Source: an uncultured Myxococcia bacterium
GTDB taxonomy: Bacteria; Myxococcota_A; UBA9042; PHBI01
Direction of reading: 5' to 3'
NCBI GenBank assembly: GCA_942493285.1
Contig: OW818691.1
Span: forward strand, 1,234,321 to 1,298,320
DNA length: 64,000 nucleotides
Below are positions 28,546-54,490 of this stretch, piece by piece. The notes beneath the pieces are model-generated. The model had not been told where the DNA came from. It was given only the letters and a program-made list of their open reading frames with translations, and ran no database searches. Position numbers and translations under genes: made by a program. Every line of letters begins with the position of its first letter. The first letter of the stretch is position 1.

Positions 28546-30111
28546 TCAGGTCCTTGGAATCACTGAGAGGTAGACTGTGACGCCGAGGCCCCGTAGTGAA
28601 CGGATTGCCTCTGCAAAAGCAATCTTTGAAAACAGAGGAAGACGAGGGACCTGGATCGTTCCCTTCTTCTTGCCACCCATCAAAAGCACCACCGAGAAGT
28701 GCTTCGATTTGGCGGCTGACGTCGGCCACTGGGCAACGTAGCGGGCCTCAATGTCAGCGATATAGGAAGCGTCGTTCCTCATGAGCCGCGCAGACACGGT
28801 CGCCTGGGAGAACAGGTGATTCCAAACTGCAGAGGTCTTGCCTGCCTTGACATGAACGAACTCCCACTTGTCAGTCAGTACATCACAGGGCTCGATCTTG
28901 CTCGTCCCGCGATAGAAGAATTTTTGGTCTTGAAGCAGCGATGAGAGCGAGTTTGCGATATTGGCGTTGAACGCGTCTTCCTTCATTCCCATCGGCCAAG
29001 GGGGAAGTTTGCTTGCGCTCGGCCAAGGAGGTAGCGCCGCAATACGGGCATTGAGACCAGTTACGTAGTTTTGGCCTGGAAGCAACCAAATGCCACGAAG
29101 GAACAGGTAGCTCTTACCGCCGTGTTTCACCTCTGCCTCAAGAAACCGTGCGAGTCGAGCTCGCGTCACCTCGCCATTCACGTCTCTGAATGAGAGGTTT
29201 GCCTTCGAGAGGTTCTTGGACGTGAGCCCCTCAGCAGCAATCACGCCCTCAAGCCCCTTTTGAGTCGGCGAGCCGAGTATGAAGTCTTTGGTTGCAACGG
29301 TCAGTGTGAAATCCGTCCCTTCAAGTTCAGCCTCAAGTGGAAGCGCCAGGACTACAAGGCGAGCATTTGTCGTCCCAGTTTGGTGCGCCAGTTGCTTGTG
29401 GAGAGCGTCGTTCAGTTTGGCCCTCAGTTTCGGCTCCCGCACGCGCTGAACGTCGTCGAGAAATTTCAGGTCTGGAGGGAGCGGCCGCCGAAGCAACTTG
29501 AGGGTATGTCGTAGCACCTTCTTGAGGTCTGTAAAGTCGCCCTTCCACGAGCGTATCCGTAGGCAGTCGGTTCCGGCAAAGAAGCTGCCAACGACGGGCG
29601 ACGCTGTCGAAGGTCGACCTGCGAGCGCCGCAAACACGTCAATGCCAAGGTCGAGGCCAAACTCATCGGGCTTGCCGGACGAGGCCCGGAATGTCGAGAC
29701 CTCCAGCGGATTCATGTCTGGCCGAAGGGTCCGCATGTGCATGACCCGCTCCGGGTCAATCAGACGGGATGCGCAATCGAGACCGTACCTCGATTGAAAG
29801 ATGCCTGCGGTGATTGACGACCACCCGTGTCCGAAGGCGACAGCGAAGACCCGCTCCCTCGTCTTTGACTTTGCCGAAATGAGCACTAGGCCCGAGGCGC
29901 TCTGATTCTGTGGGGTGGCGCCGTCCAGCGCTATGCCCAGCGCGCCCAACCACTTCACCCAGGGCGGCGTCTTGAGTGAGTTCTGCTTCAAGAGGACCCG
30001 AACGGCCTTTCCCGGATTAGCTGCCGCAGCTATCTCGTAGTATCCATCCGGGATCGGCACGGCAGCAAGACTGGCAAACTTCCGTCTGAGCAAGAACACG
30101 GTCAAATTCAT
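28546..30111 (-). CDS. Hypothetical 521-aa protein (possibly TIGR04141-like sporadically distributed family)
   Basis: Long ORF, sole occupant of cassette; C-terminal CDVLTDKWEFVHVKAGK resembles that family; weak assignment. Confidence 0.45.
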   Translation of the reverse strand: MNLTVFLLRRKFASLAAVPIPDGYYEIAAAANPGKAVRVLLKQNSLKTPPWVKWLGALGIALDGATPQNQSASGLVLISAKSKTRERVFAVAFGHGWSSITAGIFQSRYGLDCASRLIDPERVMHMRTLRPDMNPLEVSTFRASSGKPDEFGLDLGIDVFAALAGRPSTASPVVGSFFAGTDCLRIRSWKGDFTDLKKVLRHTLKLLRRPLPPDLKFLDDVQRVREPKLRAKLNDALHKQLAHQTGTTNARLVVLALPLEAELEGTDFTLTVATKDFILGSPTQKGLEGVIAAEGLTSKNLSKANLSFRDVNGEVTRARLARFLEAEVKHGGKSYLFLRGIWLLPGQNYVTGLNARIAALPPWPSASKLPPWPMGMKEDAFNANIANSLSSLLQDQKFFYRGTSKIEPCDVLTDKWEFVHVKAGKTSAVWNHLFSQATVSARLMRNDASYIADIEARYVAQWPTSAAKSKHFSVVLLMGGKKKGTIQVPRLPLFSKIAFAEAIRSLRGLGVTVYLSVIPRT

Positions 30112-30628
30112 TTCCCGCCCCCTCGTTGAGACGTCGTTCTATCACACTCACGGCCCACGCGCCAGCGTCGCCCCGAGCCTACAGAGCCTCACCGAGATGA
30201 AAGCGAAGGAAGGCCGCTTTTCGGCACGACTTCTGCGATGCTTTCGTGTCACCGGCTCTTCAGAGTCTGCGCCCAATACAGTGTGGGAGAATGTCGCAAC
30301 TGCTCAGCCGAAAGCCGGTCACACCCCCGGACTCACTCCACGGGTCACACCCCCGGACTCACTCCAATCGCGTCACACGCGCCGAGTCACTCCAGTATCG
30401 GGCGGCGCCCAGCCCTATCAGCCACACGCGGGGCTCAGGCAGCTCCTTGCGGGGCTCAGGCAGCTCATTGCGCGTGCGGATAGCGGCTTGCGGAACTCCG
30501 GTGGTTCGTTGCGGGGCTCAGCTCGCCTGGTCATGATTGCGGTCGGCGAGCACCCGCCATTGCCACTCGACCAGTCGCTCCGTCTCTTCCTCGACGCGCA
30601 AATCCGCTCCAACGCGGCTTCGCGGGAC

Positions 30629-30720: not shown

Positions 30721-31399
30721 GGCTGGCCCCAAACGCCAAAGCTGGACGTAGTTCATCGACTGTCGCCCATTCACCGCTCCGCACAGACTCTGTTGGATTG
30801 CCCGCAACCGATCTCTTGCTCTGGGCAACCGAGCCTTCGTCTCCCGAAGCCAGCCCGACGCCCATCGCTCCATGTCTCCATGTCGCCATAGTCTCCCTCG
30901 GCCTCGCTTCGGCTGCCCCTCGACCTCAGCCGATTCAGAGGTCCTCTTCATGCCCTTGGCCCCCATCCACTGCATCGTGCCGCCCCGGTCGCTTCTGCAT
31001 CGTTCACTCACCATACTTGCCTAACGCATCGTGGCACCCCAAGGTCGGGGTCCGGTAGCGTTTGGGGAGAAAATGTTGACTACGTGTGGAGAGAAACCAG
31101 ACCCATCTTCTATAGGTGTGTGGAGGCCGACGTGTCGATGAGTAGCTCCGCACTCCCAAAAACTTCTCAGCTGGCGCTGGCGACTGCCGATTGGCCCACC
31201 ATCAATCGTCGCCTCTATGCTCACGCTTTGCAGGTTGCCGAAAACTTCAAGTGGGCTGGTCAACGATATCGTCATCTGGCGAAGGGCAAGACTCTTGAGG
31301 ATGTGGTCTACGGTGCCGTCGAGGCAGTCCTAGCAGGCTGCTGAAATATGGGGTCGATTGGACCTCCCCTCCGGCCCACTTACGTCCATTGTGGACGCT

Positions 31400-32600
31400 C
31401 AGTACTCCGCTTGGAGGCGGGGGCGCCCCCTCCAGAGTTCGGCAAGTCGTGCTTGTGGCTTCAGTCTCTCATGCGGCGGCGGCGAGTCGGTTGATGTTGT
31501 TGATTTTGACCAGGTTGAAGGCGGCACCGACGAGCTTGGCGAACCATCCGATTCGTTCGAGCCCTCGATATCGAGCCCGCTTCATGCGACCTGGTTGCTT
31601 CATCCAACCGAAGACCGCTTCTATCTCGCGCCGCTTGATCAAGCTGATGGCATAGCCGGGAAACCGCGTCGTCCTGGAGTCGATGTTCGACTTGCGGCGG
31701 CCTGGCTGCTCGTTTCTCGCGACATGCGGCGTGACGTTGCGGTCGCGCAGCTGGTCAACGAAGTCTTTGGTGTCATAGGCTTTGTCAGCCCCAAGCGTGA
31801 TGCGAGACGTCCCCGCAAGGTTCTCATCGATCATGGCGATGGCCGCATCGCGCTCGATGGTGCCCGTGACGATGTCAGCGCGGGTGTCGACGATCAGTCC
31901 GTTGCGGTTCTCCATCAGCGCATTCACGGCATAGGAGAGTTCGGCTCCAGACCCGGCGCTCTTGCGAGCCAGTCGAGAATCGGGGTCCGTCGTTGACGCA
32001 TGGGTGTCATTCGAGCGCTTCTCGCCCTTGAAGTCTGACCAACCGTTCGAGTCACCAGGGTCTGAGTCCTTGGGCTTGAAGCTCTTGTGGGACGCCATCG
32101 CAGTGATGATGGTGCCGTCCACCGAGAAGTGTTCATTGCTCATCAAGCCAGCGGTCTCGGCCTGCGCCACGATGGACTTGAGGAACGCATTGGCGACATC
32201 GTGCTCGATGAGTCGCTCCCGGTTCTTCGAGAATGTGGATGCATCGAAAGCGGGGCCCGTGAGGTCCATGTCTACGAACCAACGGAACAGCATGTTGTAC
32301 TCGAGCTGCTCGCAGATTTGGCGCTCGCTCCGGACCGAGAAGAGCACCATCAGGAGCAGCGTCTTGAGCTGCCGTTCGGGCGGGATCGACGGCCGACCCA
32401 CGCTGCTATACATACTCTCGAACGTCCCATCGAGCTCCGCCAGAGCCGCATCAGCCAGCTTCTTGATGCCTCTGAGCGGATGGCTCGGTGGCACGAGTGA
32501 GCCGGGCGAGACGAGCATGAGCATGGAGGGCTGACTGGTTTTGGAGCCGCGCATACGCGCGTTAGATCATAGGGTTAGGAGAAAGTCGATCCGGCTTCTG
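31400..32600 (-). mobile_element. IS5-family insertion sequence (approximate bounds)
   Basis: Contains IS5-family DDE transposase ORF; ends not mapped. Confidence 0.45.
31469..32554 (-). CDS. IS5-family DDE transposase
   Basis: 361 aa; N-terminal InsH-like region (PERQLKTLLLMVLFSVRSERQ) and DDE region (ADKAYD..., FGWMKQ...R). Confidence 0.6.
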   Translation of the reverse strand: MRGSKTSQPSMLMLVSPGSLVPPSHPLRGIKKLADAALAELDGTFESMYSSVGRPSIPPERQLKTLLLMVLFSVRSERQICEQLEYNMLFRWFVDMDLTGPAFDASTFSKNRERLIEHDVANAFLKSIVAQAETAGLMSNEHFSVDGTIITAMASHKSFKPKDSDPGDSNGWSDFKGEKRSNDTHASTTDPDSRLARKSAGSGAELSYAVNALMENRNGLIVDTRADIVTGTIERDAAIAMIDENLAGTSRITLGADKAYDTKDFVDQLRDRNVTPHVARNEQPGRRKSNIDSRTTRFPGYAISLIKRREIEAVFGWMKQPGRMKRARYRGLERIGWFAKLVGAAFNLVKINNINRLAAAA

Positions 32601-33018
32601 CGCGGCTCGGACTTTTTCAGCAGCCTGCTAGTACAGCCTGACCTCTGGAGCCCAGAACGCGGGAGTCTCGAGCATTTCCTCAAACTTCTCGTCAGGAGCG
32701 ACCTAACGAGAATCGCTCTGAGCGGCGCTCGGAAGCGCGAGAGCTTCGGAGACGTCGACGACTTCGAGTCAAACTTGCTCGACCCCGAGAGCACTATAAT
32801 CAGGGCCGAAGAGGAGGACGCATATCGAGTTCAGATACGAGCGATGCAGCTAGCCTTCTCCGCCGACCCGATTGTCAGTCGAATCCTCGCAGGATGTCTC
32901 CAAGGAGGATCCATGAAGCCGAGGTTTCTGGCAGAATCGCTGAACTTGGGATTGCCCCAGGTCAATGCCGCCCTCAAGCGTCTCCGGCGCTGGGCTTGGA
33001 CCCCAAGAGAGTCAAGCC

Positions 33019-33408
33019 ATGAGTAAGATTTCGGTCCAAGAGCAAATTGAGTCGATTGTCGCGCTTCTCAATGAGGAAGACTTGCCTGCGGAGGATCAAG
33101 AACGTTTGATCCAGGGCGCAGACAAGGCAGTCTTGGTGCGACTCAACGCACTCACCGCCCGCTTCGTCGCTGAGAATTCGATAGCTCGGACCACCGCGGC
33201 GCAACAACGCAAGGAAGCTCTCAGGGAGCGGCTGCAGATGGTCCAGAAGTCGAATCTGTCCCGAGACGAACTGATCCTCCGCATCCAAGGCAAACGCGAG
33301 CTTCTTGGAAGCGCAGCCCCAGCATTCTTTCGGAGCTTCCTCGACGTCACCGACGAGGATCTGGCGAGCCATCTCGCGGACCTGGAGTTCCTGGACGGTG
33401 AGCGATGA
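33019..33408 (+). CDS. Hypothetical coiled-coil protein, partner of ImmA-like peptidase
   Basis: Stop overlaps start of downstream ImmA-like gene (ATGA at 33405). Confidence 0.35.
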   Translation: MSKISVQEQIESIVALLNEEDLPAEDQERLIQGADKAVLVRLNALTARFVAENSIARTTAAQQRKEALRERLQMVQKSNLSRDELILRIQGKRELLGSAAPAFFRSFLDVTDEDLASHLADLEFLDGER

Positions 33409-34253
33409 CTCGTCGATCGGCGTGTCGCGCGGAGTGGGCTGCAATCGAACTCGTGAGGCAGTGGGGAATCACCAGTGCCCCGGAGCTACACTATCTGGAT
33501 GACCTCGCTTTCATGGCAGGCGCACTCGTCGTCGACTCAATTCTAGAAGGCGCACAAGCGCGTCTCGTGTGTGGAGCCGGTCGGGCAATCATCAGCGTTT
33601 CGACGTCAATGACGTCAGAGAGACGTCGTTTCGCTATCGGGCACGAGCTTGGTCACCTGAGGATGCACTCAACCAAACACCGGCACGCGTTGTGTAGTCA
33701 GGAAGACTTGGTGATGAGGCCCGCAGCCAACGAGCGGACCGCATTCGCAGAGCAGCAGGCCAATCTTTTCTCGTCAGCGATTCTCATGCCGGAGTTTCTC
33801 TTCGCGCCGCGCCTAGGAGGCGACTATCCCACGATCGCCACGCTCGAGTCGCTTGCTGCGGAGTTTGCGACTTCACTGACAGCGACCGCGTGTCGGTATG
33901 TTCGACTGACAACTCACTGTTGCGCGGTGATCTATTCGGTCGAGGGCATAGTCCATTGGGCGATGCCCAGTCAGAGCTTCCTCGACTCTCCTTTCAGGAT
34001 ACTCGGCGGTCCCGTCGATCGGTGCTCTCTTGCCGGCCTGCTGGGCGAGTTCAATGGCCCGGCTGTAGCTACCGAGCTACGCTCCCCAGCGAGCGCGTGG
34101 CTAGCTGATGGACCATACGACCGGGCCGCCTCACTTCGGGAGCTGTGTTGGCCAATGCCAAACTACCGCGCGACTCTGTCTATCATTCAGCTTGACTCTG
34201 ACATTCTCGATTTCGGCTTCAGTGCTCATAGAGATGGAGCTTACTTGTCGTAA
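33405..34253 (+). CDS. ImmA/IrrE-family zinc metallopeptidase
   Basis: HEXXH motif IGHELGHLRMH and downstream E (FAEQQANLFSSAILMP) typical of DUF955/ImmA. Confidence 0.55.
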   Translation: MTRRSACRAEWAAIELVRQWGITSAPELHYLDDLAFMAGALVVDSILEGAQARLVCGAGRAIISVSTSMTSERRRFAIGHELGHLRMHSTKHRHALCSQEDLVMRPAANERTAFAEQQANLFSSAILMPEFLFAPRLGGDYPTIATLESLAAEFATSLTATACRYVRLTTHCCAVIYSVEGIVHWAMPSQSFLDSPFRILGGPVDRCSLAGLLGEFNGPAVATELRSPASAWLADGPYDRAASLRELCWPMPNYRATLSIIQLDSDILDFGFSAHRDGAYLS

Positions 34254-34967
34254 CGTTCCGAAGTGGGGGATTGAACGTTGCCCCTCCTCCTTTTGAGCCG
34301 CCGAAGTAGGCACCTCCATCAGGCAGAGTTGCTCGGAACTCGACTTCCGCGTTCGACTCTGTCGTCGGCCCCCCGCGACGCGAGGCCAGCTAACGAGAGT
34401 CGGGGTCTCAAGGTCAGTAATAGACCGAGATTCCAAGCGCTCCCGAAGGCGTTCGAGGATTCACGGATGCCTTCCGGCCCGCCTGTTCGACCTTCGAGGA
34501 CACTTGCGCTCGTCACGCGCTCAGCCAAAGCCTGGCGAGGATTCTTGGACGGCTTCCGAGTGCGCCGAAAGCCGGCGGCTCAGAGCTCGGAAGACTGCTG
34601 TCCTGACGAGAGCGTCCCACGGAATCCTCGCACACGGTCTCTAGCGACGGGAGCACATCCCGTAGTCCTCGGACATCAACCCCGATTCTCCGGGCGCCTC
34701 CACCAAAGTTCGCGCCGCCTGTGTCCCGTATCCCGGCAGCGCCTTTGTGCACCTCCGAGCCTCGACGAGCTTCTATATCCTCAGGTCAGCGGTCTCGCGG
34801 GCCAAACCCCCATGGCAACGTCAACTGGTTCGTGGCCCAGCCCACGAACCAGAAGCAGAACTCTCCCACCTGCAAGAATGACGAGCTCGAGCTCGTCCTT
34901 CACCCTGACCCGAGCTTTCGTGCTGCCGTTCGGCGCGTGACGGGACGGCTATTTCACGAGGCCAGCC

Positions 34968-35059: not shown

Positions 35060-35458
35060 GTCCCGCACGAGGCCTGCTCGTTCCCTCGCCTTCCTCACCG
35101 CCTTCCTCCGAGAGCGCCCCGCATCCCTCAAGGCCGCTGCTCCGCCTGCAGGCCCCTGTCGTCTCCTTGCCCTCCTCGCCTGACTCGCTTCTGGAGGGAC
35201 GTGCATCCCTCAAGCCCCCGATGCCGGTTCGGTTCCTGGCCCTACGCCTCCCGTTGCTCACTGGGGCGCATCCCCCTCGCAGGGTTGCTCCTCGAGCTCG
35301 CGGTTGAGGTCGCCAGAGTGTCCCAATCGGAGAGACACCTGGCACACTTGGGACAGTTGCGGGACACTTTCGCGAGAAATAGCTGCGTGTTTTCAAGGGG
35401 CTGAGGTTGGCCCGGCTCTTGCTCATGGGTTCGCGTTTCCCAACACGAGAACCCGGTT

Positions 35459-36637
35459 ATGCACACGGAACCTACACGGCTCATCTCTCCATCCGTTCAG
35501 GGGGTGATTCGGCAGTTCGCGCCCAGCTACATCGCGAAGAATGGCAAGGGGTTACCCCTGTCGCATCGCAAGGCGCTTCGCCTCCTCTCTCAGTGTCGAA
35601 CGGTCGCGCTTGGCGGTCACGTGGTCGAGTGCGGCAACTGCAAGGTGCAGGACTACACCTACCACTCGTGCGGCCACCGTTCTTGCCCTCGCTGCATGTC
35701 GGAGGACTGTGATGCGTGGCTTGGCGCTCGGCGGAGTGAGCTGTTGCCGGTTCCTTACTTCCACGTGGTGTACACGGTGCCGGAGGGGCTGAACGGCGTG
35801 GTGCGGAGTCATCAAGGGGAGCTGTATCCAGTGCTGATGCAGGCGGCGGGTAACTCGCTTCTGGCAGTTGCGGCCGCGCCTGACAACCTGGGGGGTAGGG
35901 TAGGGGTGATGTCGACGCTGCACACGTCGTCGAGTGCGCTGGCGTACCACCTTCACGTGCACTGCCTTGTCCCCGCGGGGTCGGTCGATGCAGAGGGCGA
36001 GTGGCATGACGCGAAGGACTCGCGCCTGGGGTCAGAGAGCGCGCTTGGCAAGGCTTTCCGGGACAAGGTCGGTTCGATGATGAAGGCCGCAGTCCCGGAC
36101 GTTGCGCTGCCGGACGGGGTGTTCGACCTCGCGTGGAAGGTGCATCTCGAGGTACCGCAGCACGGGGCGGAGACGGTGCTTCGGTATCTGGGTCGCTCGG
36201 TTCACCGCGGCCCGATGAGTGACCACCGCATCGTGTCTGTGACCGAGACCCATGTCGTGTTCAAGTATCGGGACAAGGACCGCACGAAGGCCAAGACGAT
36301 GTGCGTGGACGGCCACGAGTTCCTTCGTCGCTTCCTGCAGCATGTTTGGCCCGACCGGGTGCACAAGGTGCGCTACGCTGGCTTGTGGAGTCGGAAGTGT
36401 CGGGCGGAGCTTCGTGCACTCAGGCAGCGACTCCTGGCAGCCATGCAAGTCGAGCCACCTCCTGCGGTCGGGGAACCGAAACCGCTGCTACCCCCTGAGC
36501 CCGTCCTACCTCCGTGGCGTCGCTGCCCTCACTGCCAGGCGGAGCGGTTCATCGTGGCTCGCTTCAAGGCTGGAACCACCCCACCACCCCTGGTGGACCC
36601 GCTGCAGGGCACACTACCCGGGATAGACCCTCCCTGA
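35459..36637 (+). CDS. IS91-family (HUH Y2 rolling-circle) transposase
   Basis: N-terminal Zn-binding domain (ALGGHVVECGNCKVQDYTYHSCGHRSCPRCM), VPYFHVVYTVP, HUH motif HLHVHCLV, downstream tyrosines (LRYLGRSVH...). Confidence 0.8.
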   Translation: MHTEPTRLISPSVQGVIRQFAPSYIAKNGKGLPLSHRKALRLLSQCRTVALGGHVVECGNCKVQDYTYHSCGHRSCPRCMSEDCDAWLGARRSELLPVPYFHVVYTVPEGLNGVVRSHQGELYPVLMQAAGNSLLAVAAAPDNLGGRVGVMSTLHTSSSALAYHLHVHCLVPAGSVDAEGEWHDAKDSRLGSESALGKAFRDKVGSMMKAAVPDVALPDGVFDLAWKVHLEVPQHGAETVLRYLGRSVHRGPMSDHRIVSVTETHVVFKYRDKDRTKAKTMCVDGHEFLRRFLQHVWPDRVHKVRYAGLWSRKCRAELRALRQRLLAAMQVEPPPAVGEPKPLLPPEPVLPPWRRCPHCQAERFIVARFKAGTTPPPLVDPLQGTLPGIDPP

Positions 36638-37059
36638 TGGCGAAGCGACGGCCCTTCCGAGTATCCCGTATCCCGTCACGACCTCACGCACGAACGTGTG
36701 GTCGTCTCGCAGAGATCTGCCCTGTGAACGCCAGCGCAAGCCACTCCACGACCGATTTCGAGCGTCGGGAGCGTTCCACGCGCCACGAGTCCTCCAGTCT
36801 GCCAATCAGACTGCTCTACGGACCCGAAACCGAGGCCTCTTTGACCCGAAAAGGAGGCGATTCGGCTCCCCTCAGAGGGGCCTGCGAGGGGGCAGAACAT
36901 ATAAAATGCAGTAGGTCGCCTCGACCGCCACTGGCAAGGGTCTGCGAGCATTCGCCGTCGTCTCGAGGACAGGCCTTTCTTGGCCACCGCACTCACCGCA
37001 GGACCCCGACGCCCAATCAGCTGGAGTCGAGGCGCTAGCGACTTCAGACGTGCGGGGAC

Positions 37060-40241: not shown

Positions 40242-40298
40242 CGTCAGTCCCAACTCGACTTCTTGCGCTCAAGCAACGGACCTACCGCAGCGCCGCCC

Positions 40299-40390
40299 AA
40301 CAAGCGCATCGAACTGACGCGGCCTAATCGCGATGGGGCCTATCAGCCCCATCGCGATTGATCGGCCGCGCAGCTCATGCGCAGGACGTT
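40299..40390 (+). repeat. attC-like palindrome, copy 14
   Basis: Full-consensus copy. Confidence 0.9.
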
Positions 40391-40447
40391 GTCCCGCGAA
40401 GCCTGCTCCGTTCTCAGCTGGATTGACTGCATAGCCTCTTCCCCTCT

Positions 40448-40700
40448 CAGCTGGACTCACCATCATCCATCCTCGGGGTGGACTCACCATCATCCGTCCT
40501 CGGGGTGGACTCACCATCATCTGTCCTCGGGGTGCACTCACCATCATCCGTCCTCGGGCTCGAGTCACCATCAGCCGTCCTCGGGTTGGACTCACCATCA
40601 TCCATCCTCGGGCTCGACTCGCCGTCGTTCATTCTCGAGGTCGACTCACCACCATTCACCATCGGTCTTCGGACTGGGCTCGCCGTCGTTCATTCTCGGA
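40448..40700. repeat. 27-bp tandem repeat (GGTGGACTCACCATCATCCGTCCTCGG, ~10 units)
   Basis: Period 27 counted; starts ~55 bp after attC. Confidence 0.85.
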
Positions 40701-40759
40701 TGTGGCAATTCGGCTCCGTTGCGCACTCGCCGAACAGTCGGCACGCAGCGGACGCGGAA

Positions 40760-41620
40760 TCGATGGCGTGCTAATTTGCGATGAGATGGCTTGGTGTTAG
40801 CACGCATGTTTCCCCGCCGGACTCGTTCGATCGCAACCTCGGATGTGGACTTGAGGATCGACAATCCAAGAGCCTCACTTTCGGCGAGAAGACCTTCAGC
40901 GTGAAGCGCACGTCAAGTCGCGCGGGCCACTTTGCGATGAGAAGGCTTGGTGTTAGCACGTGTACCTCGATTCAGGGCTCTGCGTCGCGCACTTCCGTCG
41001 TGCACTCGGCGAACCACTCGGGTGCATGTTGAATCGGGGGCGTGCTAATTTACGATGAGAAGACTTGGTGTTAGCACGCGTGCCTCCTCGCCGAACTCCT
41101 TTGGTCTCATCCTCCCGGTACCTGCTGACGTCGGCTTGCCGCCCCTCGGTCGCTCGGCTCCGATGTGCACTCGCTGAACAGTTGGCGCGCGGTCCTCGTA
41201 GAATCGGGGGCGTGCTAATTTACGATGAGAAGACTTGGTGTTAGCACGCCTGCTTCCCCGCCGAACTCGTGCCGTCTCATCCTCCCCGTGCCCGCCGATG
41301 TCAGCTTGCCGACCCTCGGTCGCCCGGCTCCGATGCGCACTCGCTGAACAGTTGGCGCCCGGTCCTCGTAGAATCGGGGGCGTGCTAATTTACGATGAGA
41401 AGACTTGGTGTTAGCACGCCTGCTTTCCCGCCGAACTCGTGCGGTCTCATCCTCCCGGTGCCCGCCGAAGTCGGCTTGCCGCCCCTCGGTCGCTCGGCTC
41501 CGATGCGCACTCGCCGAACAGTTGAAGCGCGGTGCGTGTTGAATCGGGCGCGCGCTAATTTACGATGAGAAGACTTGGTGTTAGCTCGCGTGCTTTCTCG
41601 CCGAACTCGTACGGTAGCAG
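40760..41620. repeat. ~170-bp tandem repeat (5-6 units), each with a conserved 39-bp hairpin GCGTGCTAA-N21-TTAGCACGC
   Basis: Hairpin copies at ~40766, 40925, 41041, 41211, 41381, 41551; last four exactly 170 bp apart; no credible ORF. Confidence 0.85.
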
Positions 41621-41640
41621 AGCCACCTTCCATCCCCGCG

Positions 41641-41850
41641 TTGGACTGGCCATCGCTCATTCTCGGGCAGCCTCACGAGCGCGAGCTCTGGCTCGGACTC
41701 ACTGTCGTCCATTCTCAGGTGGCGCTCACCATCGTTGATTCTCGGGGCTGGGTTGAACGCACCACCTCCATTCTCCGAGGTGGACTCGCCATCGTTCAAT
41801 CTCGAGGTGGACTCGCCATCGTTCAATCTCGAGGTGGACTCGCCATGCGT
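41641..41850. repeat. 27-bp tandem repeat (GGTGGACTCGCCATCGTTCAATCTCGA family)
   Basis: Same family as 40448-40700. Confidence 0.75.
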
Positions 41851-42157
41851 GGCTGTCGTGTGCGGAATGTCGTTTGTACAGATTTGCCCCGCCGAGACCC
41901 GTGGCTCACTCCTCGTGGAGTCTTAGAGCCACCGGAGGGTAGGGCGGCTGCCAGGCGTCGACTACTTCTCCCCGCCACGACTCCCGCTCCCACCACCCCG
42001 CCGCACTCCGCCTCGCCTGTATCCGACCGCACCTCGCCAGGCTCCACCTGCGGTCTGCCAGGAACCGCTCCTCCTCGACTCAAGACCCAAATCTCGCAAT
42101 TACCTGAAGCACTTCTCTCCCTTCATCGCGCCAACTCCCGCGTGGCTTCGCGGGGAC

Positions 42158-42249
42158 AACAAGCGCATCGAACTGACGCGGCCTAATCGCGATGGGGCCT
42201 ATCAGCCCCATCGCGATTGATCGGCCGCGCAGCTCATGCGCAGGACGTT
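42158..42249 (+). repeat. attC-like palindrome, copy 15
   Basis: Full-consensus copy. Confidence 0.9.
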
Positions 42250-42357
42250 GTCCGGCGTGCGCACTCAGAACTGGTTGCACTTCAGCGACGCCCCGCGCCT
42301 GGTATCTCCCCACCCCTTCCTTCATCGGCGCTAACCGTCTTCTCGGGAGACGCTCCC

Positions 42358-42712
42358 CTCTGAGGTTGATGGCGTTCTGGAGGTCGCGCAGCGCGACGTT
42401 GACGCCTCGGCTCTGTCGCCGTCGCTCCTTTCTGCGCTTGTCGGCATCTCTCCCTCTGGGGTTGAATGTCGCTCTGGAGGTCCTGCCCGACGTTGACGCC
42501 TCGGTCACCGACGCTCTCGTCCGGCGCTCCTGTCGGCGGACGTTCGTCTCTGGGCTGGATGTCGCTCTTGAGGTCGCGGCGCGTCGTTGTGGTCCTCCTG
42601 GGAGCCTTCCCGACCGCTTGGCGCCTTGCCCTCAGCCCCTTCTGTCCCATCCGTGCGACACTTTGGGACGGTTTGGGACGGTTTGGGACAGCTATGGGAC
42701 AGTTTGGGGTTG
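42358..42712. repeat. ~95-bp degenerate direct repeats (x2.5) followed by 10-bp GGGACRGTTT decamer repeats (x5)
   Basis: Visible repeated blocks TCTGRGGTTGAWTGTCGCTCTKGAGGTC...GACGTTGACGCCTCGG; decamers at 42655-42712; upstream of the diverged IS91-family transposase. Confidence 0.6.
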
Positions 42713-42884
42713 GCTTCACGTAGGCGTGATGCGGTCTTCATGGCTGGCATGGTTTTTGGCAAGAGCTCGGGTCCTCCAACTCAGGGACCTGAACATCTTG
42801 CCGCAATCGAGCCCTTCGACCTCAGCCATCTCCCTGTCTCTTGCTGACGTTCTTCGGCGGTTTGGTGCGAGGTACCGTTCGCGC

Positions 42885-43994
42885 ATGCGTGGGAGTTTGC
42901 CAGAGGAGCATCGGACTGCGATGCGGATGATCGAGAAGTGCCGCACGCCTGCTCTTGGCGGTCATGTTCTGGAGTGCGCGACGTGTGAGGGTGAGCAGGG
43001 GTATGCGTTCAACTCGTGCAATCATCGCTCGTGTCCGAAGTGCATGAGGGAGGCGTCAGCGAAATGGGTTGCAGCTCGGCACGAGGAAGTCCTCCCAGTG
43101 CCGTACTTCCATGTGGTTTTCACGGTGCCGCAGGAGCTGAACGCCATCGTTCGTGACGAGCAGCGGAAGCTCTATCCATTGTTGATGAAGGCGGCCGGGC
43201 AGGCCCTGGTCTCCATCGGGAAGTTGCCTGAGAACCTGGGTGCGACGCCGGCGGTGATGACGTCGCTGCACACGTCTTCGAATACACTCGTGTATCACCT
43301 CCATGTTCACTGTCTGGTTTCGGCTGGCGGTTTGGACGGGGAGGGGAATTGGAAGGCCTCGAAGTCCGAGACACTTGCCCCAACGCGCGCCCTTGGTGCC
43401 AGGTTCCGGTCTCGGGTACTTTCGCTGATGAAGTCAGCGGTGAAGGACCTCAGTGTCCCCGAGGCCGTGCTCAAGAAGGACTGGCAAGTCTACCTCGAGC
43501 TTCCCCACCACGGCACTCCGGCGTTGCTTGAGTACCTCAGTCGTCCGCTTCACTGCGGGCCGTTGTCGGAGTATCGCCTCGAGTCCATGACGGACGAGGA
43601 TGTGGTGTTCCGGTACCAGAAGAGTGGCGACCGGACCTGGCGCACGATGCGGTTGTCTGGACACGAGTTCCTTCGTCGGTTTCTGCAACACGTATGGCCC
43701 AGCGGTGTGCACCGGGTTCACTACTGTGGTCTGTGGCGTCGGAGGTGTCGTGAACAGCTTCGAGCTCTGCGCGCGCTCCTTCTCGGGTCAGCCCCCCCGG
43801 CACCGGCCGCCGCCCCAGTAGCAGCGCGTGCTGACGGGGATGTGCCCTCCGCTGACCTCGAGGTACCCCACTGGCTCAAGTGCCCGCACTGCGCCGGGAC
43901 GCGAGTCGTCGTCGCGCACTTCCGCGCAGGAGCGAAGCTGCCTCCGCTGACGCCACGCGGGTGGGGGGTAATCTCGCCGGAGCCACCGTCGTAG
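42885..43994 (+). CDS. IS91-family transposase, diverged second type (N-terminus may start earlier at a non-ATG codon)
   Basis: ALGGHVLECATCEGEQGYAFNSCNHRSCPKCM, VPYFHVVFTVP, HLHVHCLV; aligns along its length with the 35459-36637 transposase but with different sequence; 600-aa ORF-track call starts inside the attC repeat and is an artefact. Confidence 0.6.
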   Translation: MRGSLPEEHRTAMRMIEKCRTPALGGHVLECATCEGEQGYAFNSCNHRSCPKCMREASAKWVAARHEEVLPVPYFHVVFTVPQELNAIVRDEQRKLYPLLMKAAGQALVSIGKLPENLGATPAVMTSLHTSSNTLVYHLHVHCLVSAGGLDGEGNWKASKSETLAPTRALGARFRSRVLSLMKSAVKDLSVPEAVLKKDWQVYLELPHHGTPALLEYLSRPLHCGPLSEYRLESMTDEDVVFRYQKSGDRTWRTMRLSGHEFLRRFLQHVWPSGVHRVHYCGLWRRRCREQLRALRALLLGSAPPAPAAAPVAARADGDVPSADLEVPHWLKCPHCAGTRVVVAHFRAGAKLPPLTPRGWGVISPEPPS

Positions 43995-44315
43995 TGCAGC
44001 TCACACACCGCTCTGAATCCCACCTCGTCCTCATGGCCTCGCGAGCGGCCGTAAGGGACTGGTCCGTCCGGAGTCGGGTCAGCGCCCCCTCCGAATGCCA
44101 ATTCTTCTCTCTGAAGGCCCGTCAAAGTCGCCTCGAGACCACCCAACTTCCAAGAACCCCCTCGTCGAGGACCGAAAGCCGTCACCGCTCGCTCGCCTTC
44201 AGCCTCCTCCCTGACCACCAGATTCCTATATATCGCATAGGGCCCAGAGGTCCCTCTCGACGGCTTGCAGAGCGGCTCTCACGCCCACCCAAAGCCCATC
44301 CAATGGGCGCCGGAC

Positions 44316-47669: not shown

Positions 47670-48068
47670 GTCCCGCACGAGGCCTGCTCGTTCCCTCGCC
47701 TTCCTCACCGCCTTCCTCCGAGAGCGACCCGCATCCCTCAAGGCCGCTGCTCCGCCTGCAGGCCCCTGTCGTCTCCTTGCCCTACACGCCGGACTCGCTC
47801 CTGGACGGACGTGCATCCCTCAAGCCCCCGATGCCGGGTCGGTTCCTGGCCCTACGCCTGGCGTTGCTCACTGGGCCGCATCCCCCTCGCAGGGTTGCTC
47901 CTCGCGCTCGCGGTTGAGGTCGCCAGAGTGTCCCAATCGGAGAGACACCTGGCACACTTGGGACAGTTGCGGGACACTTTCGCGAGAAATAGCTGCGTGT
48001 TTTCAAGGGGCTGAGGTTGGCCCGGCTCTTGCTCATGGGTTCGCGTTTCCCAACACGAGAACCCGGTT

Positions 48069-49247
48069 ATGCACACGGAACCTACACGGCTCATCTCTCC
48101 ATCCGTTCAGGGGGTGATTCGGCAGTTCGCGCCCAGCTACATCGCGAAGCATGGCAAGGGGTTACCCCTGTCGCATCGCAAGGCGCTTCGCCTCCTCTCT
48201 CAGTGTCGAACGGTCGCGCTTGGCGGTCACGTGGTCGAGTGCGGCAACTGCAAGGTGCAGGACTACACCTACCATTCTTGCGGCCACCGTTCGTGCCCTC
48301 GCTGCATGTCGGAGGACTGTGATGCGTGGCTTGGCGCTCGCCGGAGTGAGCTGTTGCCGGTTCCTTACTTCCACGTGGTGTACACGGTGCCGGAGGGGCT
48401 GAACGGCGTGGTGCGGAGTCATCAAGGGGAGCTGTATCCAGTGCTGATGCAGGCGGCTGGTAACTCGCTTCTCGCAGTTGCAGCCGCGCCTGAGAACCTG
48501 GGGGGTAGGGTAGGGGTGATGTCGACGCTGCACACGTCGTCGAGTGCGCTGGCGTACCACCTTCACGTGCACTGCCTTGTCCCGGCGGGGTCGGTCGATG
48601 CAGAGGGCGAGTGGCATGACGCGAAGGACTCGCGCCTTGGGTCAGAGAGCGCGCTGGGCAAGGCTTTCCGGGACAAGGTCGGTTCGATGATGAAGGCCGC
48701 AGTCCCCGACGTTGCGCTGCCGGACGGGGTGTTCGACCTCGCGTGGAAGGTGCATCTCGAGGTACCGCAGCACGGGGCGGAGACGGTGCTTCGGTATCTG
48801 GGTCGCTCGGTTCACCGCGGCCCGATGAGTGACCACCGCATCGTGTCTGTGACCGAGACCCATGTCGTGTTCAAGTATCGGGACAAGGACCGCACGAAGG
48901 CCAAGACGATGTGCTTGGACGGCCACGAGTTCCTGCGCCGCTTCCTGCAGCACGTCTGGCCCGACCGGGTGCACAAGGTGCGCTACGCCGGTCTGTGGAG
49001 TCGGGGCTGTCGTCCGCAGCTCCGCGCACTCAGGCAGCGACTCCTGGCAGCCATGCAAGTCGAGCCACCTCCCGCGGTTGGGGAACCGAAACCGCTGCTA
49101 CCCCCTGAGCCCGTCCTACCTCCGTGGCGTCGCTGCCCTCACTGCCAGGCGGAGCGGTTCATCGTGGCTCGCTTCAAGGCGGGAACCACCCCACCACCCC
49201 TGGTGGACCCGCTGCAGGGCACACTACCCGGGATAGACCCTCCCTGA
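48069..49247 (+). CDS. IS91-family transposase (copy 2)
   Basis: 392 aa, few substitutions relative to copy 1. Confidence 0.8.
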   Translation: MHTEPTRLISPSVQGVIRQFAPSYIAKHGKGLPLSHRKALRLLSQCRTVALGGHVVECGNCKVQDYTYHSCGHRSCPRCMSEDCDAWLGARRSELLPVPYFHVVYTVPEGLNGVVRSHQGELYPVLMQAAGNSLLAVAAAPENLGGRVGVMSTLHTSSSALAYHLHVHCLVPAGSVDAEGEWHDAKDSRLGSESALGKAFRDKVGSMMKAAVPDVALPDGVFDLAWKVHLEVPQHGAETVLRYLGRSVHRGPMSDHRIVSVTETHVVFKYRDKDRTKAKTMCLDGHEFLRRFLQHVWPDRVHKVRYAGLWSRGCRPQLRALRQRLLAAMQVEPPPAVGEPKPLLPPEPVLPPWRRCPHCQAERFIVARFKAGTTPPPLVDPLQGTLPGIDPP

Positions 49248-49669
49248 TGGCGAAGCGACGGCCCTTCCGAGTATCCCGTATCCCGTCACGACCTCACGCA
49301 CGAACGTGCGGTCGTCTCGCAGAGATCTGCCCTGTGAACGCCACCGCAAGCCACTCCACGACCGATTTCGAGCGTCGGGAGCGTTCCACGCACCACGAGT
49401 CCTCCAGACTGCCGATCAGACTGCTCTACGGACCCGAAACCGAGGCCTCTTTGACCCGAAAAGGAGGCGATTCGGCTCCCCTCAGAGGGGCCTGCGAGGG
49501 GGCAGAACATATAAAATGCAGTAGGTCACCTCGACCGCTACTGGCAAGGGTCTGCGAGCATTCGCCGTCGTCTCGAGGACTGGCCTTTCTTGGCCACCGC
49601 ACTCACCGCAGGCCCCCGAAGCCCAATCAGCTGGAGTCGAGGCGCTAGCGACTTCAGACGTGCGGGGAC

Positions 49670-50137: not shown

Positions 50138-51280
50138 ATGGTGCGGCGAATGTTCATCCATGAGCTCCCGGGCTGGCCGGGTCTGACTTGGGACGCGGGC
50201 GTCTTGGCCAACGCTCTTGGGCGGGTCCGGCACCGACAAGGTCGCCTGCTTGGGCGCATGGAGGCGCTAGGCTTTGACCTTCGCGACGAAGCGAGCGTCA
50301 TGGTCCTCACACGCGACGTGGTTGAGTCATCCGCGATTGAGGGGGAGCATCTCGACGCGACAGATGTGCGTTCCTCCATTGCACGGAGGCTGGGGCTGCC
50401 GCTCGCGGGATTGGCGTCGCCTCCAAGCCAGCGAGTGGAGGGCATCGTCGAGGTGCTGTTGGATGCGACGCAACGCGCGCGCAAAGGCCTGACCCAAGAG
50501 CGCCTATGGGGCTGGCATGCGGCGTTGTTTCCGACGGGCTTCAGTGGAATGCGTCGAATCACGGTAGGCGCTTGGCGGCCGCCTGAGGCAGGGCCAATGC
50601 AGGTAGTGTCCGGTCCAGTGGGACGGGAGCGCCTGCATTTCGAGGCTCCGGCCGCAGAACGACTCGCAACAGAGATGGGAGAGTTCCTTGCGTGGTTCGA
50701 GTCGTCAACGCAAGCTGCTGATGAACTCGATCCAGTGCTCATTGCCGCGATTGCCCACCTTTGGTTCATCACGATTCACCCGTTCGAGGATGGTAATGGC
50801 CGAATAGGGCGGGCTATAGCGGACATGGCGTTGGCACGCGCCGATGGGATTCCGCAGCGGTTCTATAGTCTCTCGTCGCAGCTCATGACAGAGCGCAAGG
50901 ACTACTACCGTGAGCTCGAAGCAGCTCAGCGCGGCAGTCTCGACATCACGGACTGGCTCGCGTGGTTCCTGGGCTGCTTGGACCGCGCCATTGACCGTTC
51001 CGATGATCTCGTGGCGGGTGTCATGAGGCGTGCGAAGATTTGGAGGCGAGCAGAGGAACAACCTGGGGTGAACGCTCGCCAGCGAACAGTCATTGAGCGC
51101 CTCCTGGGGGACTTCAAGGGGCACCTGACATCATCGAAGTATGCGACATTCGCAAAGTGTTCAAGTGACACGGCTCTACGCGATATCGAGAACTTGGTTG
51201 AACGAGGGATCCTTGTCCGCAATCCAAGTGGGGGACGGAGCACGAGCTATCGACTGGCAGAGGCCGAGTTGTTCTCATGA
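50138..51280 (+). CDS. Fic-family protein (AMPylase-type Fic/Doc toxin)
   Basis: Canonical Fic motif HPFEDGNGRIGR; 380 aa with N-terminal extension. Confidence 0.75.
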   Translation: MVRRMFIHELPGWPGLTWDAGVLANALGRVRHRQGRLLGRMEALGFDLRDEASVMVLTRDVVESSAIEGEHLDATDVRSSIARRLGLPLAGLASPPSQRVEGIVEVLLDATQRARKGLTQERLWGWHAALFPTGFSGMRRITVGAWRPPEAGPMQVVSGPVGRERLHFEAPAAERLATEMGEFLAWFESSTQAADELDPVLIAAIAHLWFITIHPFEDGNGRIGRAIADMALARADGIPQRFYSLSSQLMTERKDYYRELEAAQRGSLDITDWLAWFLGCLDRAIDRSDDLVAGVMRRAKIWRRAEEQPGVNARQRTVIERLLGDFKGHLTSSKYATFAKCSSDTALRDIENLVERGILVRNPSGGRSTSYRLAEAELFS

Positions 51281-51546: not shown

Positions 51547-51945
51547 GTCCCGCACGAGGCCTGCTCGTTCCCTCGCCTTCCTCACCGCCTTCCTCCGAGA
51601 GCGACCCGCATCCCTCAAGGCCGCTGCTCCGCCTGCAGGCCCCTGTCGTCTCCTTGCCCTACACGCCGGACTCGCTCCTGGACGGACGTGCATCCCTCAA
51701 GCCCCCGATGCCGGGTCGGTTCCTGGCCCTACGCCTGGCGTTGCTCACTGGGCCGCATCCCCCTCGCAGGGTTGCTCCTCGCGCTCGCGGTTGAGGTCGC
51801 CAGAGTGTCCCAATCGGAGAGACACCTGGCACACTTGGGACAGTTGCGGGACACTTTCGCGAGAAATAGCTGCGTGTTTTCAAGGGGCTGAGGTTGGCCC
51901 GGCTCTTGCTCATGGGTTCGCGTTTCCCAACACGAGAACCCGGTT

Positions 51946-53124
51946 ATGCACACGGAACCTACACGGCTCATCTCTCCATCCGTTCAGGGGGTGATTCGGC
52001 AGTTCGCGCCCAGCTACATCGCGAAGCATGGCAAGGGGTTACCCCTGTCGCATCGCAAGGCGCTTCGCCTCCTCTCTCAGTGTCGAACGGTCGCGCTTGG
52101 CGGTCACGTGGTCGAGTGCGGCAACTGCAAGGTGCAGGACTACACCTACCATTCTTGCGGCCACCGTTCGTGCCCTCGCTGCATGTCGGAGGACTGTGAT
52201 GCGTGGCTTGGCGCTCGCCGGAGTGAGCTGTTGCCGGTTCCTTACTTCCACGTGGTGTACACGGTGCCGGAGGGGCTGAACGGCGTGGTGCGGAGTCATC
52301 AAGGGGAGCTGTATCCAGTGCTGATGCAGGCGGCTGGTAACTCGCTTCTCGCAGTTGCAGCCGCGCCTGAGAACCGGGGGGGTAGGGTAGGGGTGATGTC
52401 GACGCTGCACACGTCGTCGAGTGCGCTGGCGTACCACCTTCACGTGCACTGCCTTGTCCCGGCGGGGTCGGTCGATGCAGAGGGCGAGTGGCATGACGCG
52501 AAGGACTCGCGCCTTGGGTCAGAGAGCGCGCTGGGCAAGGCTTTCCGGGACAAGGTCGGTTCGATGATGAAGGCCGCAGTCCCCGACGTTGCGCTGCCGG
52601 ACGGGGTGTTCGACCTCGCGTGGAAGGTGCATCTCGAGGTACCGCAGCACGGGGCGGAGACGGTGCTTCGGTATCTGGGTCGCTCGGTTCACCGCGGCCC
52701 GATGAGTGACCACCGCATCGTGTCTGTGACCGAGACCCATGTCGTGTTCAAGTATCGGGACAAGGACCGCACGAAGGCCAAGACGATGTGCTTGGACGGC
52801 CACGAGTTCCTGCGCCGCTTCCTGCAGCACGTCTGGCCCGACCGGGTGCACAAGGTGCGCTACGCCGGTCTGTGGAGTCGGGGCTGTCGTCCGCAGCTCC
52901 GCGCACTCAGGCAGCGACTCCTGGCAGCCATGCAAGTCGAGCCACCTCCCGCGGTTGGGGAACCGAAACCGCTGCTACCCCCTGAGCCCGTCCTACCTCC
53001 GTGGCGTCGCTGCCCTCACTGCCAGGCGGAGCGGTTCATCGTGGCTCGCTTCAAGGCGGGAACCACCCCACCACCCCTGGTGGACCCGCTGCAGGGCACA
53101 CTACCCGGGATAGACCCTCCCTGA
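51946..53124 (+). CDS. IS91-family transposase (copy 3)
   Basis: 392 aa. Confidence 0.8.
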   Translation: MHTEPTRLISPSVQGVIRQFAPSYIAKHGKGLPLSHRKALRLLSQCRTVALGGHVVECGNCKVQDYTYHSCGHRSCPRCMSEDCDAWLGARRSELLPVPYFHVVYTVPEGLNGVVRSHQGELYPVLMQAAGNSLLAVAAAPENRGGRVGVMSTLHTSSSALAYHLHVHCLVPAGSVDAEGEWHDAKDSRLGSESALGKAFRDKVGSMMKAAVPDVALPDGVFDLAWKVHLEVPQHGAETVLRYLGRSVHRGPMSDHRIVSVTETHVVFKYRDKDRTKAKTMCLDGHEFLRRFLQHVWPDRVHKVRYAGLWSRGCRPQLRALRQRLLAAMQVEPPPAVGEPKPLLPPEPVLPPWRRCPHCQAERFIVARFKAGTTPPPLVDPLQGTLPGIDPP

Positions 53125-53546
53125 TGGCGAAGCGACGGCCCTTCCGAGTATCCCGTATCCCGTCACGACCTCACGCACGAACGTGCGGTCGTCTCGCAGA
53201 GATCTGCCCTGTGAACGCCACCGCAAGCCACTCCACGACCGATTTCGAGCGTCGGGAGCGTTCCACGCACCACGAGTCCTCCAGACTGCCGATCAGACTG
53301 CTCTACGGACCCGAAACCGAGGCCTCTTTGACCCGAAAAGGAGGCGATTCGGCTCCCCTCAGAGGGGCCTGCGAGGGGGCAGAACATATAAAATGCAGTA
53401 GGTCACCTCGACCGCTACTGGCAAGGGTCTGCGAGCATTCGCCGTCGTCTCGAGGACTGGCCTTTCTTGGCCACCGCACTCACCGCAGGCCCCCGAAGCC
53501 CAATCAGCTGGAGTCGAGGCGCTAGCGACTTCAGACGTGCGGGGAC

Positions 53547-53638
53547 AACAAGCGCATCGAACTGACGCGGCCTAATCGCGATGGGGCCTATCAGCCCCAT
53601 CGCGATTGATCGGCCGCGCAGCTCATGCGCAGGACGTT
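53547..53638 (+). repeat. attC-like palindrome, copy 20
   Basis: Full-consensus copy. Confidence 0.9.
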
Positions 53639-53756
53639 GTCCCGCGAAGCCTGCTCCTTTCACAGCTGGACTGGCCGCGAAGCCTGCTCCTTTCACAGCT
53701 GGACTGTCCGCGACGCCTTCTCCGCTCTCACTTGGAGTCTCTGTCATCCATGCGCG

Positions 53757-53980: not shown

Positions 53981-54002
53981 CGGGAAGCCTCCTCCGCTCT
54001 CA

Positions 54003-54450: not shown

Positions 54451-54490
54451 ATAGCGGCTCGAGCCTGTGGGGCTCGGGTGGTTCGTGATG

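Follow-up and report, generated by a model that had tools for sequence, protein, structure and literature searches.

The stretch of DNA analysed here (the window, 64,000 nt, G+C content of about 60%) is an integron cassette array. Its 28-nt attC core has 22 copies in the whole window, all on the + strand and free of mismatches, and a profile search of the window returned 23 attC sites, none of them inverted. No integron integrase gene was detected among the scanned ORFs of the window, and no tRNA or tmRNA genes were found. IS91-family transposases are carried by 5 of the 22 window cassettes, one of them lying directly downstream of the cassette described here; two of the transposase genes are located at 35459-36637 and 42777-43994. 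The latter extends from G|TT to G|TT over 1859 bp (40389-42247), between attC copies 14 and 15, whose cores start at 40329 and 42188. All 23 attC-bounded cassettes that were compared follow a rule according to which the start GTTGxxx is complementary to the end xxxCAAC; this one starts with GTTGTCCCGCGAAGCC and ends with TTCGCGGGGACAAC, and GTTGTCCCGCGAAG in its R' is complementary to CTTCGCGGGGACAAC in its R''. Folded as single-stranded DNA, attC copy 14 reaches -39.9 kcal/mol (z = -6.8). Since attC sites lie on both sides and the cassette ends are complementary, the stretch is a genuine integron cassette without a gene.

The cassette contains three nested repeat families which share a strand-polar core, GSYGGACTY (Table 1). 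Its modules follow the order leader, 26/27-bp repeats, one to six units of about 160-172 bp, 27-bp repeats, tail and attC, which is the order of a family of non-coding direct-repeat cassettes, and the window cassette is a cargo-less member of this family. The same leader opens two other cassettes of the window, at 28341 and 53637, and also cassettes on the related contigs L001, L002/L005, L008 and L009. Tandem Repeats Finder reported a period of 170 bp at 41031-41615 (3.4 copies, 90% matches) and a period of 27 bp at 40452-40655 (7.6 copies) and at 41776-41846, and a repeat search widened the 27-bp family to the two blocks listed in Table 1. Successive hairpin starts are spaced by 156, 118, 170, 170 and 170 bp. 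The hairpin pattern, with up to three mismatches, has five matches in the window and none in 100 shuffles, and in a sixth copy, at 40922, the 5' arm is degenerate. The original prediction, made from the letters of the window, had described 27-bp repeats flanking hairpin-bearing units of about 170 bp, the last four at an exact 170-bp period; this architecture is confirmed, with six units in total and with the period given by the hairpin starts from 41040 to 41550. The hairpin itself is real and has the 9-bp stem that had been described, and its size is 40 nt (9 + 22 + 9) instead of 39. The tail thought to be conserved at the unit ends, CTCGTAGAATCGGGGG, is exact in only two units, the remainder having TGTTGAATCGGGG(G/C) or GCGGAATCGATG. 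Finally, the cassette had been said to consist entirely of repeats, which does not hold, as it also comprises a leader of about 60 bp and a unique tail. This tail is about 90% identical in L008 and L009, and protein-database searches with its spurious ORFs found nothing.

Table 1. Features of the gene-less cassette and of its flanking attC sites (positions in the window)
Feature	Position	Strand	Basis or remark
attC copy 14	40297-40396	+	R' crossover G|TT at 40388|40389 = cassette start
Leader, two imperfect ~28-33-bp repeats ending CAGCTGGA(C/T)T	40397-40451	+	Repeat search
Left block, about ten 27-bp repeats (TGGACTCACCATCATCCGTCCTCGGGG)	40423-40701	+	Tandem Repeats Finder and repeat search
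Unit 0, hairpin 40766-40805 with 3 mismatches, then divergent 3' half	40710-40911	+	
Degenerate unit 0', hairpin position 40922-40961	40912-41020	+	61 bits; 5' arm GCGGGCCAC unpaired
Four units with an exact 170-bp period, hairpins 41040-41079, 41210-41249, 41380-41419 and 41550-41589	41021-41615	+	
Promoter-like site TGAACA-N18-TAGAAT, ending 6 nt 5' of a hairpin	41175-41204	+	Consensus match
Second, identical promoter-like site	41345-41374	+	Consensus match
Longest ORF, 203 aa, TTG start inside the last hairpin	41575-42186	+	Judged spurious
Right block, about nine 27-bp-type repeats (CGAGGTGGACTCGCCATCGTTCAATCT and diverged copies)	41616-41861	+	
Unique tail, 296 bp	about 41862-42157	+	Ends in the R'' flank TTCGCGGGGACAAC
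attC copy 15	42154-42255	+	Owned by the gene-less cassette; crossover G|TT at 42247|42248

The cassette has no conserved protein-coding frame and no Pfam match, which bears out the earlier statement that no plausible CDS lies between attC copies 14 and 15. A long ORF with homologues had been named as evidence that would speak against this statement, and an ORF of 203 aa is indeed present; it is not a gene, because its translation matches nothing in Pfam and indels of 1, 16 and 28 nt disrupt the frame in the homologous cassettes of L001, L008 and L009. Shorter frames were likewise rejected. A small + strand ORF found in each unit (MRRLGVST) relies on a loop ATG that is not conserved and is ATT, ATC or ACG in other copies, a + strand frame from TTG/GTG shows no 3-base periodicity in the variation that follows the hairpin and meets variable unit lengths, and a - strand frame ending in VLTPSLLIVN is not maintained in other loci, where either the start or the frame is lost. 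The units were also rejected as a protein-coding tandem repeat, given that their lengths over all loci range from 156 to 180 bp without a multiple-of-3 rule and that the 27-bp repeat has a 26-bp variant. Variation among the 27-bp repeats falls mostly at every third base, which gives them a coding-like look. A decayed or frameshifted repeat-protein gene, with 9-residue repeats such as DDGESTPRM or VDSPSSILG, would account for this third-base pattern and for the fact that both strands are open through the repeats, but such a gene is already refuted for practical purposes by the 26-bp period of the repeats in L008, by the 26-bp and 22-bp periods of the sister repeat families in the window, by a unit period of 170 bp, which is not a multiple of 3, and by the absence of a Pfam match.

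The core of each unit measures about 85 bp, and in its middle lies a 40-bp inverted repeat that hardly varies, GCGTGCTAA-N22-TTAGCACGC. In comparisons between loci, identity is 95% for the stem arms and 91% for the whole hairpin, against 75% for the 8-nt loop centre, 63% for the 30 nt downstream and 52% for the 20 nt upstream, and the hairpin contains no indel in 24 copies. Two invariant blocks, GCGTGCTAATTT.CGA and C.TGGTGTTAGCACGC, surround a variable centre of fixed length; the loop edges are as invariant as the stem, and a CTTG is conserved in the loop. The high identity of the arms compared to that of the flanks, together with the lack of indels, clearly points to selection acting on the hairpin itself. 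On visual inspection of the alignments, about 8 of the 24 units have GTT after the conserved GGACTC block.

What the hairpin might form was addressed by several structural analyses, and the tests that had been suggested for a structured RNA were negative or weak. The Rfam/Infernal scan that had been recommended yielded nothing: no match at the gathering threshold in the whole window, and for the units in E-value mode a best score of 18 bits, against a threshold of 50, with an unrelated fly lncRNA. The recommended folding check recovered the hairpin stem and no other consensus structure (a 10-bp stem and a 3-bp inner stem, from 18-21 aligned copies), and the fold z of whole units and of 100-nt cores ranged from -2.2 to +1.2 on both strands with RNA or DNA parameters. 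As single-stranded DNA, unit cores gave z values of -2.2 to +0.5, compared to -6.8 for attC. Covariation in the stem amounts to two compensated pairs (T-A to C-G in L004:3299 and L004:1428, A-T to G-C in L004:1428) and four broken cells, values that were reached by 4-12 of 500 shuffles; with so little variation, the stem is hardly informative about structure. A terminator-like element had also been considered, and neither a terminator-like site nor a U-tract was found 3' of the units. As for the suggested search for further hairpins, a covariance model built from 21 copies recovered every copy and matched nothing else in the window.

A number of specific candidates were rejected. Pairing between the loop and the downstream sequence in a pseudoknot is not unit-specific (permutation p = 0.38), and an extended stem between the two flanks gives no overall unit-specific signal (p = 0.64). 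Individual instances of flank pairing were seen at L004:1586, L003:243 and L001:7691. A hammerhead ribozyme was suggested by CGATGAGA in the loop and then dropped, as this motif varies and none of the ribozyme models gave a score; more generally, covariance-model scores were not near the gathering threshold for any Rfam family. A CRISPR array is contradicted by the 130-nt stretches between hairpins, which are homologous to one another (88-91% identity), and an array resembling that of ToxI in type III toxin-antitoxin systems, with tandem repeats of about 36 nt upstream of an endoribonuclease toxin, by the period of 170 bp and by the lack of a gene in the cassette. The units do not represent a second kind of attC either, for which RYYYAAC/GTTRRRY boxes and a very stable imperfect hairpin would be expected, as the attC profile (nhmmer) does not match them and their fold z is about 0 compared to -6.8.

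About 20 further distinct unit copies were found, all on uncultured metagenome contigs, and all inside attC-bounded cassettes in the same orientation as attC. A metagenome scan gave five contigs (L001-L005), and three more (L008, L009 and L010), from two other datasets, were found with spurious unit-spanning ORFs in a protein database. The hairpin core had no match in 185,579 species genomes and none in viral contigs, plasmids or phages. A scan with the attC pattern gave two hits, both attributable to chance, and an exact-protein look-up gave none. The cassettes of L008 and L009 align with window positions 40297-40838 and then from 41201 or 41444 to 42247, at 76-86% identity, and their central part holds an inverted attC and a cargo gene; L002/L005 and L003 are built likewise. 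Because its relatives keep both halves and add an inverted attC and a cargo gene centrally, the window cassette is, on the strength of these alignments, the cargo-less form of the scaffold. Nested inverted cassettes are found in four of about six relatives and in none of the 22 window cassettes; these nested elements are cassettes in the proper sense (for example, GTTGTTAGGCC at the start of the one in L009 matches GGCCGAACAAC at its end). Two of the right-hand nested junctions lie exactly at the CGCCGAAC motif of the unit, which is G|TTCGGCG on the other strand, and the left-hand junctions read GGACG|AT, as would be expected from integrase recombination at secondary sites. Rearrangement end-points were also found inside hairpins, in a truncated unit of L008, in L001 at 7061-7075, and in L005, where the junction of the inverted attC falls within the loop of the counterpart of unit 0', uninterrupted in the window at 40922; the same junction occurs in L002.

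A second cassette family, with a different leader, also carries units. L004/L010 have five units immediately 5' of three + strand ORFs and a further unit behind these ORFs; the only start codon available to the first ORF of L004 is a TTG/GTG inside the last hairpin of the five-unit array, and the hairpin of the unit behind the ORFs begins, in L004, 7 nt past the stop codon of a + strand ORF. A sulfatase-modifying-enzyme-like gene of L001 is followed by at least four units, units are located 3' of cargo genes at L001:2656, from L001:7187 onwards and at L004:3299, and those of L009 flank cargo genes on the opposite strand. Cargo-bearing cassettes thus have single or arrayed units on either side of their cargo, and cassettes differ in their number of units, which ranges from 1 to 6. 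Given the presence of units in a second cassette family and on both sides of the cargo, the unit is apparently a module that moves between cassettes and can stand before or after cargo of either orientation.

Our working hypothesis, which we put forward tentatively, is that the unit acts in cis as a module that serves transcription of the array on the sense strand. Transcripts would start at the hairpin, or a few bases from it at most, under a weak promoter (YGAACM, 17-19 nt, YWGAAT) followed by a G-rich stretch, and the hairpin would form a stem-loop at the 5' end of the transcript, where it may stabilize the RNA or be bound by a regulator. A stem-loop at the 5' terminus stabilizes bacterial mRNAs. 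Tandem copies of the unit would have additive effects, and transcription would be restarted deep in the array, in the present case towards the downstream IS91-family transposase cassette. Directly upstream of hairpins, we found two sigma-70-type promoter-like sites with 9/12 matches, against 0.4 expected; 13 of 24 units have a looser promoter-like pattern at this position, and 19 of 24 have GAATC with a G-run. The five units that precede the three + strand ORFs of L004/L010 also favor this proposal, as does the position of the only start codon of the first of these ORFs. This lineage seems to make use of sigma-70-type promoters, since a cargo gene of L008 is preceded by TTGACA-N17-TAGAGT. Furthermore, most of the gene-less cassettes tested in chromosomal integrons of Vibrio have sense-strand promoter activity (PMC11014356). 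Several observations argue against a transcription module: conservation of the promoter-like hexamers is far below that of the hairpin, only two units have the key A at position 2 of the -10-like hexamer, and the first or single units at L004:1586, L004:3299 and window 40922 keep the hairpin without the -35-like part. In addition, units also lie 3' of cargo genes or flank opposite-strand ones, no terminator follows them, and according to the authors of PMC11014356 the promoters of cassettes of this type are not identifiable in silico.

Other explanations have to be weighed against this proposal. The unit is conceivably, though we consider it doubtful, an extragenic repeat of the REP or BOX type without a promoter of its own, in which case the stem-loop would form in read-through RNA and would block exonucleases, mark a processing site, or weakly terminate or insulate transcription. 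The occurrence of the same module 5' and 3' of cargo, single or arrayed and in one orientation only, fits such a repeat, as do the hairpin that begins just past a stop codon in L004 and the two compensated stem pairs, the intermediate C.A on the + strand being a G.U on the - strand. BOX elements are modular, with a variable number of tandem sub-units, and the build of the units resembles theirs. What a purely structural role leaves unexplained is that the loop edges are as invariant as the stem; moreover, the stem has only 9-10 bp and the loop 20-22 nt, the fold energy is not better than that of shuffles, and a U-tract is absent. With its variable but length-constant centre between invariant arms and loop edges, the hairpin resembles a site of protein recognition, which suggests that the inverted repeat, extruded from single-stranded DNA or as a duplex, might be bound or cut at the DNA level by the integrase, by an IS91-family HUH transposase or by a repressor, the repeat cassette then being a landing pad or a mobilizable element. 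This we regard as unlikely. The conserved CTTG of the loop recalls the CTTG/GTTC tetranucleotides that stand beside the subterminal palindromes of IS91-family elements, for which ends of 89 and 82 bp suffice for transposition (PMC13181058). The five IS91-family genes of the window, with one directly downstream, point in the same direction, and so do the frequency of nested inverted cassettes in the relatives, their junctions, which are like secondary sites of an integrase, and the several rearrangement end-points within hairpins. Yet the flanks of the IS91-type cassettes resemble the unit neither in sequence nor by a matching palindrome, the units, whose cores fold far less stably than attC, give no match to the attC profile, the breakpoints vary in position, the units are not regularly accompanied by any one protein gene, and a stretch without coding content may simply tolerate nested insertions. 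A more elaborate version, which we mention as a speculative and improbable one, would make the repeat cassette an acceptor platform, in which the hairpins and CGCCGAAC would be preferred single-stranded DNA sites for the integrase and/or IS91-family HUH transposases, inverted cassettes would be captured and stored antisense to the array promoter, and the units would spread between cassette families in a partnership like that of REP and RAYT, here for Y2 transposases within an integron.

The array could also have no function and be a minisatellite that has grown by slippage and unequal crossing-over in a dispensable, selfish cassette. The variable copy number, the core shared by the three nested families and the homogenization within loci (the loop GAGAAGAC is confined to the window array) are all compatible with this idea, which nonetheless seems quite unlikely to us, since drift and homogenization are insufficient to explain a hairpin that is kept at 91-95% identity in three separate datasets and in different cassette families, next to unit sequence that has diverged to 52-63%. 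Finally, the array might comprise trans-acting small RNA genes, one per unit. The full units each have a promoter-like site, the conserved hairpin and a small GC-rich stem near the end, and integron cassettes can carry sRNAs, as exemplified by sRNA-Xcc1 (PMC12444791). This possibility is nevertheless very unlikely, given that the units have no Rfam match, no terminator-like site at their 3' side and no conserved structure beyond the hairpin, that the pairing between loop and downstream sequence is not unit-specific, and that single units abut genes without the rest of the supposed gene.

In large chromosomal integrons, a noticeable fraction of the cassettes is gene-less, and these have so far been understood only as promoter carriers. 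The window cassette displays a different anatomy, a scaffold of nested non-coding repeats with a strongly selected hairpin module that is common to unrelated cassettes, on both sides of cargo, in cassettes that repeatedly hold backward insertions. If the hairpin is a regulatory or recombination signal, it would represent a new cis-element for integron biology and a handle on the expression, silencing or assembly of cassettes deep in arrays; if it is inert, it would offer a clean case of satellite-like DNA riding the integron system.

REP/BIME elements of enterobacteria and BOX elements of pneumococci are non-coding, palindromic, modular and intergenic, and are usually transcribed within neighbouring mRNAs. 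The unit shares with them its non-coding nature, the palindrome, and a modular build with a variable number of tandem sub-units, but it is much longer (about 170 bp), its loop is larger (22 nt), and it was seen inside integron cassettes only, with no partner of the REP-associated transposase type identified. Ends of IS91-family elements (PMC13181058) similarly form hairpins, with a CTTG-type tetranucleotide nearby and a minimal end pair of about 170 bp, and IS91 genes are abundant in the array; the units differ in that they have no sequence match to the local IS91-type cassette ends and are not at the ends of transposase genes. Like attC, the units contain imperfect inverted repeats that all face one way along the array, and some are flanked by an R-box-like CCGAAC...GTTCGG at which nested cassettes recombined; unlike attC, they have an ordinary fold, no match to the attC profile, and GTT in only about a third of the copies. 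sRNA-Xcc1, as presented in PMC12444791 (citing Chen et al. 2011), is likewise a non-coding function on an integron cassette, which in our case is a candidate one; it is described there as single-copy, paired with symE and having a mapped transcript, whereas the window cassette is a tandem array known from its sequence. Comparable, too, are the gene-less cassettes with promoter activity from Vibrio superintegrons (PMC11014356) and from an oral metagenome (PMC6557892), which are also bounded by attC, devoid of genes and located deep in large arrays. They too have sense-strand promoter-like sequences aimed at the next cassette, which in the window are putative sites with weak consensus motifs. 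These cassettes have not been described with nested tandem repeats or with a hairpin module common to cargo-bearing cassettes, both of which the window cassette has, and in the literature searched we found no description of a cassette that combines nested repeats, a shared hairpin module and inverted nested cassettes. The gene-less cassette is of a known kind, and what is new are the three nested strand-polar repeat families, the strongly selected hairpin module shared with cargo cassettes, and the relatives that hold inverted cassettes.

Many cassettes in the window carry tandem repeats of 26, 27 or 33 bp immediately adjoining attC, at either the 5' or the 3' end. These repeats have the core GSYGGACTY in common; it was counted 55 times versus 6.9 expected, and 54 of these occurrences lie on the + strand. 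Each hairpin of the ~170-bp repeat units likewise has one copy of this core 17 nt 3' of its end. Two other cassettes have a distinct 22-bp tandem repeat, ACTCGATGCGGGGTACCGAGCT, close to their 3' ends. We also observed that the leader (~30-bp repeats) and the 27-bp repeats of the gene-less repeat cassette are the same in a second window cassette, in which the 27-bp repeats are followed by 17 copies of the 26-bp repeat GCTGGACTTGGGATGTGACAGCCACG.

At ~90% identity across three datasets, the unique tail of the gene-less cassette is better conserved than most repeat units. Within the tail lies a nested stem, GGCTC-ACTCC...GGAGT...GAGCC, for which no covariation was seen among the only three sequences compared.

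Relatives of the gene-less cassette hold nested attC sites in inverted orientation, complete or truncated, each followed by a cargo gene; none was found among the 22 window cassettes. The nested junctions fall at G|TT in CGCCGAAC and at GGACG|AT and look like products of integrase recombination at secondary sites. In metagenome contigs L004 and L010, where five units lie directly upstream of three ORFs, the hairpin holds all the possible start codons of the first ORF, and strong GC3 bias begins at about codon 16 and not before. The only homologue found for this ORF is an identical copy from an ENA assembly. One possibility is that the ORF is a gene truncated at its N-terminus and joined to the unit.

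Coordinates of the features discussed (L, metagenome contigs; rc, reverse complement)
Feature	Sequence	Coordinates	Strand or remark
Unique tail	window	41862-42153	
Unique tail	L008; L009	96-420; 96-420	
Nested stem	window	~41907-41934	
26-/27-/33-bp repeats	window	2654-2840, 6367-6615, 28431-28491, 30317-30394, 40423-40701, 41616-41861, 53642-54448, 57794-58447	
22-bp repeat	window	2033-2330; 12721-12848	13.5 copies; 5.8 copies
Cassette sharing the leader	window	53637-55557	
26-bp repeat in it	window	54003-54448	
ORFs 3' of that repeat	window	54491-55192, 55189-55578	-
Inverted nested attC	L005	2478-2573	
Inverted nested attC	L008	2196-2297	rc 1504-1602
Inverted nested attC	L009	2605-2707	rc 458-572
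Inverted nested attC	L003; L001	~345-400; 5428-5476	
First ORF 3' of five-unit array	L004; L010	2078-2488; 934-1332	
IS91-family Y2 transposase cassettes	window	35062-37056, 47676-49666, 51549-53543, 55662-57656, 42252-44310	Pfam Y2_Tnp + Zn_Tnp_IS91
Y2_Tnp fragment	L001	344-826	-
DDE transposase	window	31469-32554	-
Putative defence-type cargo genes	window	10853-11773, 15910-17241, 26128-27984, 28546-30111, 50138-51280, 13433-14521, 33405-34253	

The IS91-family Y2 transposase genes of the window are themselves cassettes bounded by attC, accounting for 5 of the 22. One such cassette, of 2092 bp, is present in four copies, and a relative 49% identical to it lies directly 3' of the gene-less cassette. 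A weak Y2_Tnp fragment adjoins the scaffold cassette in L001. Separately, a DDE transposase (DUF772 + DDE_Tnp_1) lies within the 4.3-kb cassette 30726-34965, which suggests that this cassette contains an insertion sequence.

The genes carried as cargo in the array resemble a defence island. Among their products are a cNMP-binding protein with a CAP12/Pycsar-type TIR domain, a GmrSD-like nuclease, an AbiEii-like AAA ATPase, a DUF6119 protein and a Fic protein, together with two proteins of the M78-peptidase type, of which the one at 13433-14521 has an HTH domain as well.
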